Positions 1 to 9,029 of a stretch of DNA of 9,029 nucleotides are shown one piece after another. Made by a program: the position numbers and the translations under genes. The notes beneath the pieces are model-generated. The model did not search any database. It was given only the letters and a program-made list of their open reading frames with translations, and was not told where the DNA came from. Source of the DNA: a virus (taxonomy: Duplodnaviria; Heunggongvirae; Uroviricota; Caudoviricetes); the IMG/VR virus record IMGVR_UViG_2802429240_000001; one strand, 5' to 3'. The stretch's first letter is position 1, and each line of letters starts with the position of its first letter.

Positions 1-226
1 GGGTAGCACTACCCTTACCGTTCAGTTCAAATCCCGTCCCCTGAATAGGGTATACCTGATACTGCCGCCCCTGCCAGGTGACCGGCTCACCTTTTTCGTT
101 CTGCTCATTACAGAAAAAATAACGTTCTCCACCGACCTCTGTCAGATCGATTTCCCAGAGCACCACGCTGGCCGACTGCTCCGCACGGGTGCATTCATTC
201 AGTGTTTCCTGCCGGATATCCTGCAT
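1..226 (-). CDS. L: Minor tail protein L (tail tip assembly), N-terminal 75 codons only; the gene continues past the left edge of the window
   Basis: Hand translation of the minus strand from ATG at 226..224 gives MQDIRQETLNECTRAEQSASVVLWEIDLTEVGGERYFFCNEQNEKGEPVTWQGRQYQ... with no stop to position 2. This matches the lambda gpL N-terminus as I recall it. The start overlaps the M stop by 1 nt (TGATG), as in lambda. Not in the ORF track because it has no in-window stop. Confidence 0.85.
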   Translation of the reverse strand, partial: MQDIRQETLNECTRAEQSASVVLWEIDLTEVGGERYFFCNEQNEKGEPVTWQGRQYQVYPIQGTGFELNGKGSAT

Positions 227-555
227 CAGTTCACCACCTGTTCAAACTCTGCGCTGAACTCAACACGCAGCATACTGACCCGCGACGACCATTTTGCGCA
301 GGTCACCTTTATCTGCCGCCACTCATAAGGCGGCGTCCACAGAAAGGCTTTCCAGCCCCCGTGCTCTTCCAGAAACGACTCCAGTACCGTGGCCTCCTCA
401 CGGGGGACAGAAAGCGTCACGCTGTACGTTTTCAGGTTGGCATTCAGCCCGGCAGGCGCTCGCTGGGAATAGCCATCACCAAAGCGCACCTTTCTTACAG
501 AAGGGGCCGAAGCCACATCCATACCGGGTTTCACTTTCCAGCGGAAGGTTTTCAT
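226..555 (-). CDS. M: Minor tail protein M (tail tip complex)
   Basis: 109-aa ORF MKTFRWKVKPGMDV...SAEFEQVVN, near-identical to lambda gpM as I recall it and the same length. ATGA start/stop overlap with the H stop. Confidence 0.95.
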   Translation of the reverse strand: MKTFRWKVKPGMDVASAPSVRKVRFGDGYSQRAPAGLNANLKTYSVTLSVPREEATVLESFLEEHGGWKAFLWTPPYEWRQIKVTCAKWSSRVSMLRVEFSAEFEQVVN

Positions 556-3113
556 CGTCCACCTCCGGAGAACAGACCACCATCACGCATCTGCCCGGTC
601 ACAACATCCATTGCCGCCTTACGGGCTACGTCATAAACCGCCTTCAGCGCCTGTGGCCCTATCTGACCGTTCGTGCCGTCGTTGTTAATCACCACATGGT
701 TATTCTGCTCAAACTTCCCGGACGCCTGCGACCGACTGTCCGCCATGCTGCCCGGTGTACCGACATAACCGCCGGTGGCATAGCCGCGCATCAGCCGGTA
801 AAGATTCCCCACGCCAATCCGGCTGGTTGCCTCCTTCGTAAAGACAAATTCACCACGGTGAACAATCCCCGCTGGCTCATATTTGCCGCCGGTTCCCGTA
901 AATCCTCCGGTTGCAAAATGGAGTTTCGCCGCAGCTGCCTGAATGGCTGCACCACCTGACGCTGATGAGCCGCCACCGGTAGCACCTCCAATGGCGCTGC
1001 CGATACTCCCGACAATCCCCACCATTGCCTGCTTAAGCAGAATTTCTGTCATCATGGACAGCACGGAACGGGTGAAGCTGCGCCAGTTCTGCTCACTGCC
1101 GGTCAGCATCGCCGCCATATTCTGTGCAATACCATCAAAGGTCTGCGTGGCTGCACTTTTTACCTGCGACATACTGTCCGTGGCGCTCTCTTCCCACTCA
1201 CTCCAGCCGGACTTCAGGCCTGCCATCCAGCTCCCGCGAAGCTGGTCTTCAGCCGCCCAGGTCTTTTTCTGCTCTGACATGACGTTATTCAGCGCCAGCG
1301 GATTATCGCCATACTGTTCCTTCAGGCGCTGTTCCGTGGCTTCCCGTTCTGCCTGCCGGTCAGTCAGCCCCCGGCTTTTCGCATCAATGGCGGCCCGTTT
1401 TGCCCGTTGCTGCTGTGCGAATTTATCCGCCTGCTGCGCCAGCGCGTTCAGGCGCTCCTGATACGTAACCTTGTCGCCAAGTGCAGCCAGCTGGCGTTTG
1501 TACTCCAGCGTCTCATCTTTATGCGCCAGCAGGGATTTCTCCTGTGCAGACAGCTGGCGACGTTGCGCCGCCTCCTCCAGTACCGCGAACTGACTCTCTG
1601 CCTTCCACAAATCCCGGCGCTGCTGGCTGATTTTCTCATTCGCTCCGGCATGCTTCTCCAGCGTCCGGAGTTCTGCCTGAAGCGTCAGCAGGGCAGCATG
1701 AGCACTGTCTTCCTGACGATCGCCCGCAGACACCTTCACGCCGGACTGTTTCGGCTTTTTCAGCGTCGCTTCATAATCCTTTTTCGCCGCCGCCATCAGC
1801 GTGTTGTAATCCGCCTGCAGGATTTTCCCGTCTTTCAGTGCCTTGTTCAGTTCTTCCTGACGGGCGGTATATTTCTCCAGCGGCGTCTGCAGCCGTTCGT
1901 AAGCCTTCTGCGCCTCTTCGGTATATTTCAGCCGTGACGCTTCGGTATCGCTCTGCTGCTGCGCATTTTTGTCCTGTTGACTCTGCTGTTCAGCCTTCTT
2001 TCTGGCGGCTTCAAGCGCAAGACGGGCCTTTTCACGATCATCCCAGTAACGCGCCCGCGCTTCATCGTTAACAAAATAATCATCCTTGCGCAGATTCCAG
2101 ATGTCGTCCGCTTTCTTAAACGCAGCCTCTGCCTTAATCAGCATCTCCTGAGCGGTATCAGGACGACCAATATCCAGCACCGCATCCCACATGGATTTGA
2201 ATGCCCGTGCTGTCCTGTCTGCCCAGGTCTCCAGCGTGCCCATGTTCTCTTTCAGGCGGCGGGTCTGGTCATCAAACCCTTTCGTTGCGGCCTCGTTCGC
2301 TGCCTGCAATGCCCCGGCTTCATCGCCGGAACGCTGCAACTGAGCAACATACGCAATCTGCTCCGCCGTCACGTTATGGAACTGACGCGCCATCGCTGTC
2401 AGCCCCGACGTCGGGTCTGTGGTCAGCTTCCCGAAGGCTTCAGCGACCTTGTCCACCTCCACGCCGGATGCAGAGGAGAAACGCGCCACACTCTGGCTGA
2501 TGGATGCAATCTGAGCCTCACCGCTTACTCCCGCCTTAACCAGTGCGCTGAGTGACTCGCTGGTCTGGTTAAACGTCAGCCCTGCCGCCTGCCCGGCTCT
2601 GGACAGGACCAGCATACGATCTGCCGTCAGACCCGACTGATTGCCGGAAAGGACCAGCGTTTTGTTGAAATCGGACAGGGTTGAGTTGCCCTGATACCAG
2701 GCATACGCCAGCGCACCGGTCGCCACCGCCAGCGAGGTGGTCCCGACCATCGGCAGGGTGATCGCACCGGCAAGCCCCCTGAACATGGGGATCATCCCGC
2801 CGAAGGAGTCCTTCACCTGACCACCCTGTTGCAGCAGGATCAGCCACGGACTTTGCCCGCCTGCAAGCTGCGTGGCCACGTCGGTGAACTGCGCAGGCAG
2901 CATACGCATGGCGGCTTTATACTGCCCGACGGAAATCCCCGCTTTCTGTGCAGCCAGCGCCTGTCGGCTCAGCGACTGTTCAACGACTGCCGCTGTTTTT
3001 TTCGCATCAGTTTCCGTACCGGAAAAATGACGCCTGACTCTGGCCATCTGCTCGTCAAATCTGGCCGCATCCAGACTTAAATCAACGACCAGATCGCCTA
3101 CCGGTTCAGCCAT
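552..3113 (-). CDS. H: Tail tape measure protein H
   Basis: 853-aa ORF, the same length as lambda gpH, with an N-terminus (MAEPVGDLVVDLSLDAARFDEQMARVRRHF...) and overall sequence I recognise as gpH. It has a long Ala/Gln/Glu/Lys/Arg-rich helical central region and a Gly-rich C-terminal part. GAGGAG RBS upstream of ATG at 3113; start overlaps the T-frame stop (3106..3108). Confidence 0.97.
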   Translation of the reverse strand: MAEPVGDLVVDLSLDAARFDEQMARVRRHFSGTETDAKKTAAVVEQSLSRQALAAQKAGISVGQYKAAMRMLPAQFTDVATQLAGGQSPWLILLQQGGQVKDSFGGMIPMFRGLAGAITLPMVGTTSLAVATGALAYAWYQGNSTLSDFNKTLVLSGNQSGLTADRMLVLSRAGQAAGLTFNQTSESLSALVKAGVSGEAQIASISQSVARFSSASGVEVDKVAEAFGKLTTDPTSGLTAMARQFHNVTAEQIAYVAQLQRSGDEAGALQAANEAATKGFDDQTRRLKENMGTLETWADRTARAFKSMWDAVLDIGRPDTAQEMLIKAEAAFKKADDIWNLRKDDYFVNDEARARYWDDREKARLALEAARKKAEQQSQQDKNAQQQSDTEASRLKYTEEAQKAYERLQTPLEKYTARQEELNKALKDGKILQADYNTLMAAAKKDYEATLKKPKQSGVKVSAGDRQEDSAHAALLTLQAELRTLEKHAGANEKISQQRRDLWKAESQFAVLEEAAQRRQLSAQEKSLLAHKDETLEYKRQLAALGDKVTYQERLNALAQQADKFAQQQRAKRAAIDAKSRGLTDRQAEREATEQRLKEQYGDNPLALNNVMSEQKKTWAAEDQLRGSWMAGLKSGWSEWEESATDSMSQVKSAATQTFDGIAQNMAAMLTGSEQNWRSFTRSVLSMMTEILLKQAMVGIVGSIGSAIGGATGGGSSASGGAAIQAAAAKLHFATGGFTGTGGKYEPAGIVHRGEFVFTKEATSRIGVGNLYRLMRGYATGGYVGTPGSMADSRSQASGKFEQNNHVVINNDGTNGQIGPQALKAVYDVARKAAMDVVTGQMRDGGLFSGGGR

Positions 3114-3944
3114 ACCGGACTCCTCCTGCGATCCCTTCTGATACTGTCATCAGCATTACGTCATCCTCCGTCATGTCCGCCACATCCGGGGAAGCGGGGA
3201 TAACTTCATTCCCGTCCGGGCCAAAACGAACGCCTCCGGCAAGCCCTGCCGCTTTCTGCATCAGCACATCATCTTCAGGCTCTTCGTCAGCCTCGCGCCG
3301 GTTCAGCAGACTGAAATCCAGCGGATGCATATCCGGATCGCTGAAAAACAGGCTGAGCACGGTGTACGTCAGCCCGGAAAAGTGCATATCCAGCAGAACA
3401 TCATGAAAATAATGGGTACTGTAAAAGCGGTGCCAGTCGGCATACTCCGTGGATGACATCCCGGCAAGCATGGCGCGCCAGTCGGGTCGCCCCATTTCAC
3501 GCGCCAGTTTCAGGGCAAAACTCAGCTCACCGTCGAACACTTTCCCGCAGAAACAGGCTCTGCAGGCCCGGCGTCATCTGCCTGTTCAGGGGCATTATTC
3601 ACAACAAACTCAGACATTCCGGACAGACGTAACACCACGTTTTCAGCCTGAGCAATTGCCTCCGTGGGCCAGGTGGTAAGCACTTCCTGCTCAATCTGCG
3701 TAATGGCTTCATTCATGGACGGCAGCTTTGTCTTCTGCGGATGGTTATGCCACAGAGACATCGCCACCAGAAACGCCCCGCCTCTGATAAGATCCTCTAC
3801 AGACACCTGCAGGTTGCCACTGGATTCAGCCTTTTTTTCCTGCTCTATCAACCAGGCAAGATGCTCAATACGCTGCAGGGCTGACAGTTCAGAAAGCGTG
3901 ACGGTCACACCGTTATGTTCAAATGATTCGGTTTTCAGGAACAT
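3106..3944 (-). CDS. T: Tail assembly chaperone G-T fusion, made by a programmed -1 ribosomal frameshift from G into the T frame
   Basis: The T-frame ORF (3106..3540, VFDGELSFALKLAREMGRPDW...) overlaps the 3' end of G in the -1 frame and has no independent RBS-preceded ATG. The slippery heptamer G GGA AAG sits in the G frame at 3546..3540 (plus-strand text ctttccc), and slipping back one base gives GTG TTC GAC GGT GAG = VFDGE. Same arrangement as lambda G/GT. Confidence 0.9.
3522..3944 (-). CDS. G: Tail assembly chaperone G
   Basis: 140-aa ORF MFLKTESFEHNGVTVTLSELSALQRIEHLAWL..., lambda gpG-like and the same length. It ends just after the slippery heptamer (...SAGKCSTVS*). Confidence 0.95.
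   Translation of the reverse strand: MFLKTESFEHNGVTVTLSELSALQRIEHLAWLIEQEKKAESSGNLQVSVEDLIRGGAFLVAMSLWHNHPQKTKLPSMNEAITQIEQEVLTTWPTEAIAQAENVVLRLSGMSEFVVNNAPEQADDAGPAEPVSAGKCSTVS
3540..3546 (-). promoter_or_regulatory. -1 programmed ribosomal frameshift slippery site GGGAAAG (G to G-T)
   Basis: Minus-strand heptamer G GGA AAG in the G reading frame (codons GCG GGA AAG verified by hand), six codons before the G stop. Identical to the lambda heptamer. Confidence 0.9.
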
Positions 3945-3959
3945 CGCTGACTCTCCGGA

Positions 3960-4700
3960 TTAACTGGCGGTGACGTTGATTTCTGCAACCGCAGCAAGTT
4001 CACCATTACCGGATACAACCGGAATGTTGACCTTACCTGCAGCGACGCCTTTCACAGTGATGGTCATACCACTGACCGACACGGTGGCTTTTGTTTTATC
4101 CGCTGACACCGCACGGAAGCTCTTGTCGGTTGCGCCCTCCGGCTGGAAGGCCACGGTCAGCGTGGTGCTCTGCCCTTTCACCACCGAGGTGCTGGCAGGC
4201 GTCACGGTCATGCCGGTTGCCGCTGTGACCGTGCTGCGATCTTCTGCCATCGACGGGCGTCCCACATTGGTGACCTTCACCGTGCGGGTGATCACTTCCT
4301 TCGCCGTCACCGCTTTACCGATACTGCTGACCCAGCCACGGAACACATCGACCGTGCCGTTCGGGAAGCGGATTTTATAGGCACGGGTATCACCTTCATT
4401 AAACCACGCCAGCAGCGCCTGCTGCCCCTGCTCTCCGGGCATCCACGCCAGCGTGAAGCTGGTATCTCCGGCTGATTTCTGCCCCTGCCCGGTCGCAGTC
4501 CAGTCCGCATCTTCATCATCGAGATAGCTGTCGTCATAGGACTCAGCGGTCAGTTCGCCGGGCGTCAGGTCTTTAACTTTTGCCAGACGCGACCAGTCCA
4601 CGTCTGAAAGCGGGTTCGCATAAGGGTCACCGTTCCCCTTATAAACCCACAGTGTGGTCCCGGCACCTTTCACCGGCATTGTAGGATTTGGTACAGGCAT
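3960..4700 (-). CDS. V: Major tail tube protein V
   Basis: Translation from ATG at 4700 gives [31 protein letters not shown]... (246 aa), with a C-terminal Ig-like region. GAGGA RBS about 8 nt upstream. The track ORF starts 10 codons earlier at 4730, but that extension lies inside U and is not used in lambda. Confidence 0.95.
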
Positions 4701-4707
4701 AGCGTCC

Positions 4708-5103
4708 TCACATTTCATAGGTAATGACATAAGTCAGATCGGCTGAACTCCACAGGCCCGCATCATCGTCGCGCCGGTAGTCATAGCCGCTGGCCACCAT
4801 ACTGGTGATCAAATCTGACAGTGCCGGGATATCGCTCATCACCGGATAAATCCGGGACTCCATCCACGCATCCAGCTCTGAATCCGGCACCTGAGCAGGC
4901 AGGAAAACTTCGATATGCAGCTCCGCCTGCCAGGTATCGCTGTCCAGCTCTTCGCCCGTGTATTCAGCGCCGGTGAGATAAACGGCAACTGCCGGAAAAT
5001 CCGCCTCATCAAAAACAGCGGGGCGACCATCAAAAAACGTCGCCCCGGTGTCATGCTTCTCCAGTGCATCCAGTACGGCTGCACGGAGTTCAGTATGTTT
5101 CAT
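4708..5103 (-). CDS. U: Tail tube terminator protein U
   Basis: 131-aa [56 protein letters not shown]..., lambda gpU-like and the same length. ATGA overlap with the Z stop. Confidence 0.95.
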
Positions 5104-5678
5104 CGCTTTATTACCATCCTCAGTTGATGCTGCAGCGCATAGCCCAGCTCTTTCGGAAGACGTTCACGCCGTATCCGCTCAATATTTTGTTTAAACGCCG
5201 TGGTCAGCGGCACCGCCATCGGGATTTTCACCACATCAATGGGGTAACGGTTTTTCCCGGCCACACGCTGCATGACATGCCACCGGCCATTTTTCAGTTG
5301 CTGAATAAACGCGCCGGGAATACGACGGTTACCCACCACAAGCACGCTGCCGCCACCTTTCAGGGATGAACGCTGCCCCTTTTTACGACGCCTGCGGCGC
5401 GAAAGGACAACCCGCGCGTTACCCAGCCTGATTACGGGCAAATCCCCCCGGTTAACCTTGATTCTGGCCTGCGGATTTTTGACCGTGGCCCTTTTCAGCC
5501 TGGCCCTTTCCTTTACCAGTTTCCGGCGTACCTTTGTCTCACGGGCAACCTGTGACGCCGACTGCGATATCGCGGATGAAGCAACGCGGTTAATGGCCAT
5601 TGCGGCGGCACCAGGCACCGCCGTTCTGCTGATACGGCTGAGGTTTTCAATGGCCTGCTCAAGACCTTTTATGGCCAT
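5100..5678 (-). CDS. Z: Tail completion protein Z
   Basis: 192-aa ORF MAIKGLEQAIENLSRISRTAVPGAAAMAINRV..., lambda gpZ-like and the same length. Confidence 0.95.
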   Translation of the reverse strand: MAIKGLEQAIENLSRISRTAVPGAAAMAINRVASSAISQSASQVARETKVRRKLVKERARLKRATVKNPQARIKVNRGDLPVIRLGNARVVLSRRRRRKKGQRSSLKGGGSVLVVGNRRIPGAFIQQLKNGRWHVMQRVAGKNRYPIDVVKIPMAVPLTTAFKQNIERIRRERLPKELGYALQHQLRMVIKR

Positions 5679-5689
5679 ACATCCCCCCT

Positions 5690-6043
5690 TCAGCGGCGAC
5701 GGTTAACGGCAGGCGGTACGCCCCGCCCAAGCCAGAGATGACAGCTTCCACCATCATCCGGCGAAACCCGGTCTATCCAGAAGTTTTCCTCACCGATGGT
5801 CAGCGTGTCTCCACGCCGCAGCTGCCGCACATCATCAGTCCGGACAAACAGGGACGGGCTGGAGCCTTCAACGCGCACGCCCTGTCCGGCATAGCTGATA
5901 TTTTCAGGGTCATCAAAAACACCACGTATTACTGCGCCGGACTGCTCACCGGATGTCATGGTGGCTGACGTTCCCATGTACCCGCGTATCGTTTCATCGG
6001 CGCGAACAATGGCAGCATCGAACAGGTTATCGAAATCAGCCAC
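5690..6043 (-). CDS. FII: Head-tail joining (head completion) protein FII
   Basis: 117-aa ORF MADFDNLFDAAIVRADETIRGYMGTSATMTSGEQ..., lambda gpFII-like and the same length. Confidence 0.95.
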   Translation of the reverse strand: MADFDNLFDAAIVRADETIRGYMGTSATMTSGEQSGAVIRGVFDDPENISYAGQGVRVEGSSPSLFVRTDDVRQLRRGDTLTIGEENFWIDRVSPDDGGSCHLWLGRGVPPAVNRRR

Positions 6044-6054
6044 AACGCCTCCCG

Positions 6055-6450
6055 TTATTGCATTCTGGCCAGGCCGCGCTCTGTCATTTCGGCTGCCACA
6101 CCGGCAGAGACACGAAACGCCGTTCCCGGCAGCACAAATGCCACAGGTTCATCCCGCGTGGCGTGAAGTGCATCAGTATGCAGCGTCACCAGTGCCACGA
6201 CCGTGACCAGAGCAGCCGTATCAGTCACGGTATCCGGCTGCGCTGATACCACCTCATTTTCATGTCCGGTCAGCGCATTTTCCGGGTTGACAGATGTGTC
6301 CTGACCGGCAGCGTCATCCGTGTCATCAAGCTCCTCTTCCAGCTCTGCCACACGGAGTGCCAGTTCTTCTTTCGTCCCCGTCAGGCTGACATCACGGTTC
6401 AGTTGCTCACCCAGCGAGCGGAGACGGGCAATCAGCTCATCTTTCGTCAT
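6055..6450 (-). CDS. FI: DNA-packaging / head assembly accessory protein FI
   Basis: Translation from ATG at 6450 gives MTKDELIARLRSLGEQLNRDVSLTGTKEELALRVAELEEELDD...RGLARMQ (131 aa), with GGAGGAG RBS immediately upstream. The 13-codon N-terminal extension in the track ORF (to 6489) is rejected. Confidence 0.92.
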   Translation of the reverse strand: MTKDELIARLRSLGEQLNRDVSLTGTKEELALRVAELEEELDDTDDAAGQDTSVNPENALTGHENEVVSAQPDTVTDTAALVTVVALVTLHTDALHATRDEPVAFVLPGTAFRVSAGVAAEMTERGLARMQ

Positions 6451-6491
6451 GGACTCCTCCACAGAGAAACAATGGCCCCGAAGGGCCATGA

Positions 6492-7517
6492 TTACGCCAG
6501 TTGTACGGACACGAACTCATCAGGGTCAGCCAGCAGCATCAGCGGTGCTGACTGAATCATGGTGAACTCACGCGCCGGATCGCCGGTGGTCACCCAGTTT
6601 TTCGGGTAGCGGGCAGAGGCGTTAATGCCTTCGCGCTGTGCGTCCGCATCCTGAATGCAGCCATAGGTGCGCAGACCGCGTGCCTGAGTGTTCCCCAGCA
6701 CCATCGTGTTGTCCGGCAGGAAGTTCTTTTTGACGCCGTTTTCCACGTACTGTCCGGAATACACGACGATGGCCACATCGCCATACATTCCCTTATAGGA
6801 CACCGCTTTGCCCAGGTCTTTTACCGCTGTCTCCAGCTCGGAATGAGAGCCGCGACGGGTATCCAGCTTCTCCCTGACGGCTTTGAAGGAACGGAACAGC
6901 GCCCAGCCTTTCGGATCAAACACGATGATATTCACCACACCGCTGGCGTTCAGCGCGTAGGCTTCGATATCGTCTGTCGGGTCATACGTGGACTTGTCAC
7001 GCTTGCTCCACTCCGTGCCGCCGGACTGCGTGATGTTATTCGCCTCACTGCGGCCCATATCCACCTCAACCGGATCGAAGGCTTCACCGGTCATGGTGTA
7101 TTTGCCCTTAAGCACGGCAGAAACTGCCTGCATCTCTTCGACCTGAGCAATGGCCAGCTCTTCGTCACGCATGTTCTGCATGATGATGCGACGGCGGCGG
7201 TAAGTCGGGTCCGCCAGATTCTGCGGATCTTCATCCGGCAGGCGACGCAGGGTCATCTGCGGATTCACTTCATGCTTCGGCTTGACATATCCCGGCGTAA
7301 ATTCAGAGGTGGAGCCGCCACGGGAACGGATAACCTCACCGGAAACAATCGGCGAAACGTACAGCGCCATGTTTACCAGTCCCGGAATTTGTGAGAGATA
7401 GACTTTCTCCGTAGTGAAGGGATAGCTCTCACGGAAAAAGAGACGCAGAAACAGCGGATCAAACTTAAATTTCTGCTCATTTGCCGCCAGCAGCTGGGCG
7501 GTTGTGTACATCGACAT
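6492..7517 (-). CDS. E: Major capsid protein E (HK97-fold)
   Basis: Translation from ATG at 7517 gives MSMYTTAQLLAANEQKFKFDPLFLRLFFRESYPFTTEKVYLSQIPGLVNMALYVSPIVSGEV... (341 aa), near-identical to lambda gpE as I recall it. The track ORF starts 9 codons upstream inside the D-E intergenic hairpin. Confidence 0.97.
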   Translation of the reverse strand: MSMYTTAQLLAANEQKFKFDPLFLRLFFRESYPFTTEKVYLSQIPGLVNMALYVSPIVSGEVIRSRGGSTSEFTPGYVKPKHEVNPQMTLRRLPDEDPQNLADPTYRRRRIIMQNMRDEELAIAQVEEMQAVSAVLKGKYTMTGEAFDPVEVDMGRSEANNITQSGGTEWSKRDKSTYDPTDDIEAYALNASGVVNIIVFDPKGWALFRSFKAVREKLDTRRGSHSELETAVKDLGKAVSYKGMYGDVAIVVYSGQYVENGVKKNFLPDNTMVLGNTQARGLRTYGCIQDADAQREGINASARYPKNWVTTGDPAREFTMIQSAPLMLLADPDEFVSVQLA

Positions 7518-7572
7518 AAAAAAATCCCGTAAAAAAAGCCGCACAGGCGGCCTTTAGTGATGAAGGGTCAGG
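7518..7572 (-). terminator. D-E intergenic stem-loop followed by a U-tract (terminator-like hairpin inside the late operon)
   Basis: Minus-strand RNA reads ...AAAG GCCGC CUGU GCGGC UUUUUUUACGGGAUUUUUUU AUG(E): a 5-bp GC stem (plus 7538..7551) with a 4-nt loop, extendable by G-U and A-U pairs, followed by a U7 run. The 55-nt gap it occupies is the same size as the lambda D-E gap. Confidence 0.5.
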
Positions 7573-7905
7573 TTAAACGATGCTGATTGCCGTTCCGGCA
7601 AACGCGGTCCGTTTTTTCGTCTCGTCGCTGGCAGCCTCCGGCCAGAGCACATCCTCATAACGGAACGTGCCGGACTTGTAGAACGTCAGTGTGGTGCTGG
7701 TCTGGTCAGCAGCAACCGCCAGAATGCCAACGGCAGCACCGTCGGTGGTGCCATCCCAAGCAACCAGCTTACGGGTGGAGGTGTCCAGCATCAGCGGGGT
7801 CATTGCAGGCGCTTTCGCACTCAATCCGCCGGGCGCGGTTGCGGTATGAGCCGGGTCACTGTTGCCCAGCGGCTGGTAATGGGTAAAGGTTTCTTTGCTC
7901 GTCAT
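7573..7905 (-). CDS. D: Head decoration protein D
   Basis: Translation from ATG at 7905 gives [43 protein letters not shown]...AISIV (110 aa), lambda gpD-like. 9-nt gap to the C stop, as in lambda. Confidence 0.95.
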
Positions 7906-7914
7906 AAACATCCC

Positions 7915-8277
7915 TTACACTGGTGTGTTCAGCAAATCGTTAACGGCATCAGATGCCGGGTTACCTGCCGCCAGCGGTGTCGGTGCCCCCTGCATCAGAC
8001 GATCCAGCGCAGTGTCACTGCGCGCCTGTGCACTCTGTGGTGCTGCGGCCAGAATGCGGCGGGCCGTTTCCACGGTCATACCGGGGGTTTCTGCCAGCAC
8101 GCGGGCCTGTTCTTCGCGTCCGTGAGCCTCCTCACAATTGAGGATCCCCATAATGCGGCTGTTTTCTGCCGCAACCGCTGCGGTGATCTGTGCGTTCACG
8201 TCCGGCTGCGCCGCGCTGGCGTTCTCGCCCTCTGTCGCTGACACCACGTCAGTAACGTCAGCCTGCAAAGCAGTGGC
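7915..8277 (-). pseudogene. C: 3' remnant of capsid assembly protease / scaffold gene C (with nested Nu3), truncated upstream by the IS66-family insertion
   Basis: An open frame ending ...GNPASDAVNDLLNTPV* sits exactly where the lambda C/Nu3 C-terminus would be, 9 nt upstream of D. Only about 120 codons remain before the frame runs into the IS terminus at about 8278; lambda C is about 439 aa (from memory). The track ORF 7915..8268 begins at a TTG, not a credible native start. Confidence 0.8.
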
Positions 8278-9029
8278 GTAAGCGGCTCGCCAGAACCGTA
8301 TTGATATTTACTGAGAGCTCAGATCAACTTTCCAGGGCAACAGATCGCGTACCCGGTTTGCCGGCCAGTCCTGGATATGCTCAATGACGTAACGCAGCCA
8401 TTTTTCTGGATCCACATTGTTCAGACGGCATGTGCCGATCAGCGAGTACAACACCGCCGCATGTTCGCCACCGCTGTCGGAACCCGCGAACAGCCAGTTT
8501 TTCCGGCCTACGGCCACTCCCCGTAAGGCGTTCTCTGCGATGTTGTTGTCGATTTCCACCCAGCCATTACTGCAGTACACGTTCAGGCCATCCCACTGTT
8601 TCAGCAGGTATGCGAACGCTTTTGCCGTATCTGAGTGACGCGACAGTGTTTTCATCTGTTGCTGTATCCAGTCATACAGTGACTGCATCAGTGGCGCGGC
8701 TCTGGCTTTTCTTGCCACCAGACGCTGTTCTGCTGAACAGCCCCGGACCTCTGCCTCGATGGCATACAGTTCACCGATACGCTGCAGGGCTTCCGTGGTG
8801 ATGTCGGTTGGCACTCTTGCATGCACATCGTGGATTTTTCTCCGGGCATGAGCCATACACGCGGCTTCCGTTATTCTGCCGGATTCGTATAACGCCCGGT
8901 AGCCACCGTAAGCATCGGCCTGAAGCACACCGCTGTAACCGGCCAGGTGATTTTGTGGATGGATACCTTTCCGGTCCGGACTGTACGCGAACCAGACCGC
9001 CGGGGGCATCTGTGAACCGGCGTTACGGT
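8278..9029 (-). mobile_element. IS66-family insertion sequence, partial: right end plus the 3' part of the transposase gene; the rest lies beyond the window
   Basis: The phage C frame is interrupted at about 8277/8278, where the plus strand reads GTAAGCGGCTCGCCAGAACCG; GTAAGCG is the terminus I associate with IS66-family inverted repeats. About 30 bp inward is the stop of an ORF carrying IS66 TnpC motifs. The exact boundary is uncertain by a few bp. Confidence 0.8.
8308..9029 (-). CDS. tnpC: IS66-family transposase (ORF3/TnpC-type), C-terminal ~240 aa; the 5' end lies beyond the window
   Basis: ORF ...[63 protein letters not shown]...; the DNNxAEN and GRKNWLF motifs are characteristic of IS66-family transposase C-termini. 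The frame stays open upstream of the first in-window Met (9009) to the window edge. Stop TAA at 8308..8310. Confidence 0.85.

Follow-up and report, generated by a model that had tools for sequence, protein, structure and literature searches.

Probable interruption of gene C/Nu3 of a lambda-like prophage by an ISCro1-like, IS66-family insertion sequence

Introduction

In phage lambda, the initiator of head assembly consists of C, Nu3 and the portal protein (PMC3224144), and C and Nu3 are each essential, with the efficiency of plating falling below 2e-7 on knock-down (PMC10695390, Table 1). The two genes overlap; in the lambda RefSeq record, nu3 is annotated over the final 201 codons of C (201 aa). 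For the insertion sequence (IS) ISCro1, a length of 2,824 bp has been published from strain EC958 (PMC8764528); the element has expanded to 24 copies in Citrobacter rodentium (PMC3072379).

The stretch of DNA analyzed here (9,029 nt, hereafter the window) carries the late genes of a lambda-like prophage up to a point within C, where they meet DNA related to ISCro1. An earlier sequence-only reading proposed that an IS66-family element had interrupted the C/Nu3 gene at this point. The comparisons described below support that view, and we estimate its probability at about 0.9.

Results

Source contig and gene order

Read as its reverse complement, the draft contig PTSL01000045.1 (assembly GCA_002965885.1; 9029 bp) corresponds to the window over its entire length, and all genes of the window lie on the minus strand. 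Both ends are assembly breaks within repeated mobile DNA, on the left in the lambdoid tail gene L and on the right in a multi-copy IS. Because the contig stops within this second repeat, only one end of the IS is visible, a circumstance that had been pointed out without its cause. Gene calls with Pfam families, together with the translations, give the order L'-M-H-T-G-V-U-Z-FII-FI-E-D, followed by the C fragment and then the IS, so that the late genes L' to D are colinear with those of lambda, as the sequence-only reading had them. The phage part (1-8277) shares 99.1% nucleotide identity with an intact chromosomal prophage of E. coli F1053, and the gene-by-gene annotation of that prophage places the portal gene, W and the terminase genes after C. 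The tail genes are untouched by the IS. At the overlap of G and T (3546-3540, minus strand), the lambda-type heptamer GGGAAAG for the programmed -1 frameshift of G/GT is conserved. The coordinates of the features discussed below are collected in Table 1.

Table 1. Features of the window and of related insertions. Positions are those of the window unless a locus of a complete E. coli genome (L-number) is given.
Feature	Position	Strand	Basis
Late genes in lambda order, L' (truncated at the contig edge) to D	1..7911	-	Pfam gene calls, translations, comparison with intact prophage
3' remnant of C/Nu3, codons 320-439 and stop (7915-7917)	7915..8277	-	116/120 aa identity to lambda gpC 320-439
GCAGTGGC, predicted 8-bp duplication, expected to recur past the left IS end in a simple insertion	8270..8277	.	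8-bp duplications of full relatives
Right-hand 752 bp of ISCro1-like IS66-family IS, cut by the contig end	8278..9029	-	98.5-98.7% identity to annotated copies
Right terminal inverted repeat GTAAGCGGCTCGCCAGAACCGT	8278..8299	.	Start of homology in five contexts; pairs with left repeat GTAACCGGCTCATTTAAACCGT of full copies
tnpC, 3' part; encodes residues 285-523 of the DDE transposase, stop 8308-8310	8308..9029	-	NF033517, PF03050, PF13817
ISCro1-like insertion in lambdoid gene C	L002 9397-12095		Complete E. coli genome
ISCro1-like insertion in lambdoid gene C	L004 6142-8840		Complete E. coli genome
Two ISCro1-like copies in lambdoid gene C	L003 6685-9383 and about 9958-12656		Complete E. coli genome

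The C/Nu3 remnant

The phage frame next to the IS had been taken for a lambda-type C/Nu3 gene, and its close match to the end of lambda gpC (Table 1) confirms this assignment. Up to position 8277 the remnant is 100% identical in nucleotide sequence to intact C alleles of many E. coli genomes (e.g., CP102244), and D begins 9 bp after the C stop codon, as it does in intact prophages. The remnant comprises 120 codons, and has neither a start codon of its own nor the S49 protease domain (Pfam PF01343, Peptidase_S49), which corresponds to residues 150-297 of the intact, 439-aa C protein and so lies upstream of the break.

Two starts can be considered for Nu3 in the intact gene. Besides the annotated nu3 of lambda, there is an in-frame methionine codon (Met309) preceded by GGAGG, from which a 131-aa product of calculated mass 13,394 Da would be made; gpNu3 is reportedly 13.4 kDa, in agreement with this product. 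Met309 precedes the break by 11 codons, and the start of the annotated nu3 precedes it by 81, so that the break is inside Nu3 under either start. Because it is downstream of both possible starts, both C and Nu3 are cut, and the scaffold gene is separated from its own start, which goes beyond a mere truncation within C. With the S49 domain and the internal Nu3 start missing from the window, what is present is a gene fragment and not a functional member of the family.

Codon 323 (TTG, 8267-8269), close to the junction, carries an S323L polymorphism. This is common to uninterrupted alleles, such as that of E. coli ST70 (CP102244), and is therefore unrelated to the insertion.

Identity of the insertion sequence

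The region 8278-9029 matches 4318 records of complete E. coli genomes, chromosomes as well as plasmids; the best matches share 98.5-98.7% identity across the full 752 bases and carry the NCBI annotation "IS66-like element ISCro1 family transposase". On the minus strand, an open reading frame containing GRKNWLF continues to the contig end and stops 30 bp inside the IS terminus, just where an ORF with IS66 TnpC motifs had been described. Its 239-aa translation matches the NCBIfam profile NF033517 (IS66 family transposase) with 263.6 bits, against a cut-off of 180 bits, over profile positions 179-386 of 387, as well as Pfam families PF03050 (DDE_Tnp_IS66; E 5.8e-65) and PF13817 (IS66 C-terminal element; E 9.2e-17), these matches covering the C-terminal 239 of 523 TnpC residues. 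The proposal that this ORF encodes an IS66-family transposase is thereby upheld. The visible terminus starts with 5'-GTAA, and inverted repeats that begin in this way are a hallmark of the IS66 family. The IS genes run in the direction of the late operon.

From its similarity to copies so labeled by NCBI (at least 98% identical), the element appears to be an ISCro1-like member of the IS66 family. The form "ISCro1-like" follows the NCBI annotation and is used because the published length of ISCro1 (2,824 bp; PMC8764528) is unlike the 2699 bp of the full relatives described below. No ISCro1 copy for comparison was present on the C. rodentium plasmids pCROD1 and pCROD2.

As just 752 of about 2699 bp are visible, the element could be a truncated remnant, consisting of a lone right end and part of tnpC, and not a complete, potentially active IS. 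Such remnants are common, accounting for 34 of the 113 IS copies in C. rodentium (PMC3072379). However, the visible tnpC frame is undisrupted and shows six conservative amino acid differences from full, 523-aa reference copies, and a contig that ends inside the repeat is the expected short-read outcome for a complete, multi-copy IS; a second assembly (see below) also stops within the element. We consider a remnant improbable.

None of the copies in 5,426 complete E. coli genomes is identical to the IS of the window; each differs from it at 10-15 of 752 positions. The right inverted repeat of the window copy is the variant GTAAGCGGCTCGCC, while other insertions in C have ...GACTCGTC. As the host is labeled an unclassified Escherichia, this may be a lineage-specific variant of the IS.

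The junction at 8277/8278

The last eight phage bases (8270-8277) read gcagtggc, as first noted, and the IS begins at 8278 with GTAAGCGG..., the start of the inverted repeat GTAAGCGGCTCGCCAGAACCGT. Matches to uninterrupted lambda-type C genes stop exactly at 8277, both in nucleotide searches with window positions 7900-8600 (query positions 1-378) and in a match over window positions 1-8277, and an alignment shows the same limit. From the other side, the sequence common to five independent genomic contexts (the window and four others) begins precisely at GTAAGCG. The position of the IS terminus at 8278 is fixed by these five contexts, because their homology starts there while every flank differs. 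The C frame thus runs straight into the IS end, and both the end point and the abutment proposed for it were correct. The tnpC stop codon (TAA, 8310-8308) shares its frame with the C remnant, and is followed by ten IS-derived codons (ISIRFWRAAY) and then by C codon 320.

Another draft contig, JABWNV020000064.1 (GCA_013368865.2), is 100% identical to window positions 533-8373, including the junction, and stops 96 bp into the IS. Proteins of this assembly are labeled by NCBI as Escherichia sp. 12.2612, an unclassified Escherichia. In it, a 130-aa "hypothetical protein" (MBB2431112.1) is annotated as starting directly after the tnpC stop; it is probably a gene-calling artefact, since there is no ATG, GTG or TTG at its start position.

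The second contig bears on whether the junction exists in the cell at all. A chimera, in which the assembler fused a contig of the prophage with a read path of the IS, would be in keeping with a draft, short-read assembly and with a join at a repeat boundary. Against this, the break is base-exact at the IS terminus, and the identical junction recurs in an assembly with another accession, though possibly from the same or a clonal strain. Because the second contig is identical across the junction, a chimera is extremely unlikely.

An exact 30-mer spanning the right junction had no match in the genome and metagenome contig collections searched. Likewise, searches of complete E. coli genomes gave no instance of the exact junction; the query was spanned by three records only, each with the IS at another position.

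Full-length relatives and insertions in gene C

Full relatives of the element in complete genomes are 2699 bp long, carry tnpA-tnpB-tnpC, and are at least 98% identical to the window over the shared part. Imperfect repeats of about 22 bp form their two ends, GTAAGCGGCTC...AACCGT and GTAACCGGCTC...AACCGT, the left repeat being seen in full relatives as GTAACCGGCTC...AAACCGT. Three of them are flanked by 8-bp target-site duplications (CTGTCATG, GTTGATTG and CTCTGTGG). ISCro1-like elements are multi-copy, occupying a median of 2 and a maximum of 34 places per E. coli genome.

Gene C has been struck independently by ISCro1-like elements at least three times in complete E. coli genomes, as found with a query (7900-8600) able to detect one orientation only. 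Two of these events are simple insertions and one is an IS-IS inversion. In E. coli HCP5S3_I2 (and the near-duplicate LCP30S3_I5), a simple insertion in C lies 18 bp from the site in the window, with the duplication GTTGATTG, and in E. coli 94_0962 a simple insertion in C has the duplication CTCTGTGG. E. coli CFSAN018748 carries two copies in C, and the segment between them is inverted with the flanking 8-mers swapped (AAATCAGC/CTTGAACC versus GCTGATTT/GGTTCAAG). Outside of C, an ISCro1-like copy in E. coli E203449 (L001 6893-8752) sits beside the gsp (type II secretion) operon and is directly followed by a different IS66-family element of the ISEc47 family; this site is a cluster of IS66-family elements.

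The inversion in CFSAN018748, one of three comparable C events in complete genomes, is a precedent for reading the junction in the window as real but as the end point of a rearrangement, in which an IS-IS inversion or an IS-mediated adjacent deletion displaced or removed the 5' part of C. Unrelated DNA would then lie beyond the IS, with no matching 8-bp repeat. That one IS end is visible and that the elements occur at up to 34 places in a genome would both suit such a history. On the other hand, three of four comparable events (at gspM/yghD, and in C of HCP5S3_I2 and of 94_0962) are simple, with intact duplications, and a 322-aa fragment of C of the matching allele, discussed in the next section, hints in the same direction. 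A rearrangement is a real but less likely alternative. The behavior of these close relatives suggests instead that the insertion in the window is probably simple and complete, with a duplication of GCAGTGGC.

A hot spot for insertion in gene C, or a bias in orientation, was considered and rejected; the counts are near chance, and the shared orientation is an ascertainment effect of the one-orientation query. With ISCro1-like copies numbering in the thousands, and gene C amounting to about 0.08% of a genome that has three lambdoid prophages, a handful of hits in C is to be expected. By a rough estimate, about 0.3 pairs of sites within 18 bp of each other would arise by chance among five sites. 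Given this figure, and numbers of C hits near the uniform expectation, it is highly improbable that the start of Nu3 is a preferred ISCro1 target, or that head knock-outs sparing the tail genes have been selected in the course of domestication into head-less, tail-only producers.

Predicted upstream junction and product

If the insertion is simple, an ISCro1-like element would have transposed into the prophage gene C of an Escherichia strain, leaving its right inverted repeat against codon 320 and duplicating GCAGTGGC. The left junction would then read ...GAGCCGGTTAC-GCAGTGGC-TGAAACAGTTG, and the left end of the IS would be followed by GCAGTGGCTGAAACAGTTG. In the coding direction, the upstream junction is predicted to be ...GTT TCA GCC ACT GC/G TAA CC... 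(the slash marking the IS boundary), in which the left repeat (GTAAcc) supplies an immediate TAA codon, so that the upstream product would be exactly C 1-322. Such a protein would keep the whole S49 domain (150-297) but lose the C-terminal, scaffold-like part shared with Nu3.

Of eight allele variants of this 322-aa product that were looked up as exact sequences, two are present in public assemblies: P0121, on 5 contigs, and P0122, on 3 contigs, the longest of 177 kb. P0121 represents the allele that matches the window exactly in its 3' part, and it points weakly to a simple insertion. Both proteins were given less weight because the protein cluster of C is rich in contig-end partial fragments of assorted lengths, and because the polymorphism at codon 323 could break contigs; this S/L polymorphism may explain 322-aa partial C proteins at contig ends in other drafts. 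Neighboring protein accessions tied no two C fragments to one assembly, and the accessions of P0121 belong to other E. coli assemblies. The predicted left junction (GAGCCGGTTAC-GCAGTGGC-TGAAACAG) had no match in the genome and metagenome contig collections searched.

Discussion

With a simple insertion, the prophage would have neither the Nu3 scaffold nor a full-length protease. Since C and Nu3 are essential in lambda, it is reasonable to expect that the prophage on its own would be unable to build proheads, as the sequence-only reading predicted. Complementation of the head defect in trans by other lambdoid prophages of the same cell is possible, since the median number of lambdoid regions in an E. 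coli genome is 3.

The prophage can accordingly be marked as probably defective for head assembly, a result of little importance beyond annotation. This is an ordinary case of prophage disabling by a catalogued and widespread IS66-family element, already known in kind, and a further instance of the accumulation of IS elements in prophages. For genome scans, the lesson is that an apparent break in colinearity can be a routine IS junction at the edge of a draft contig; here, the IS junction also explains where the contig stops.

Three known systems are close enough for direct comparison. The remnant resembles lambda C/Nu3 in sequence (116 of 120 residues identical) and in its position directly upstream of D in a colinear late operon, but the lambda gene is complete, whereas the window has the last 120 codons only, with the protease domain and both starts upstream of the break. 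IS-mediated prophage decay in E. coli CFSAN018748 likewise involves this type of IS in the head gene C of a lambdoid prophage, with a double insertion and an inversion on record, while one junction is visible in the window. The closest parallel is the copy in E. coli HCP5S3_I2 (NZ_CM149870.1), which is like the IS of the window in sequence (98% nucleotide identity over 752 bp), in the terminus GTAAGCG, in its orientation to C and in its target gene. That copy is seen complete, as a 2699-bp element with tnpA-tnpB-tnpC and an 8-bp duplication, where the window shows 752 bp, and its insertion site, 18 bp away, marks it as an independent event.
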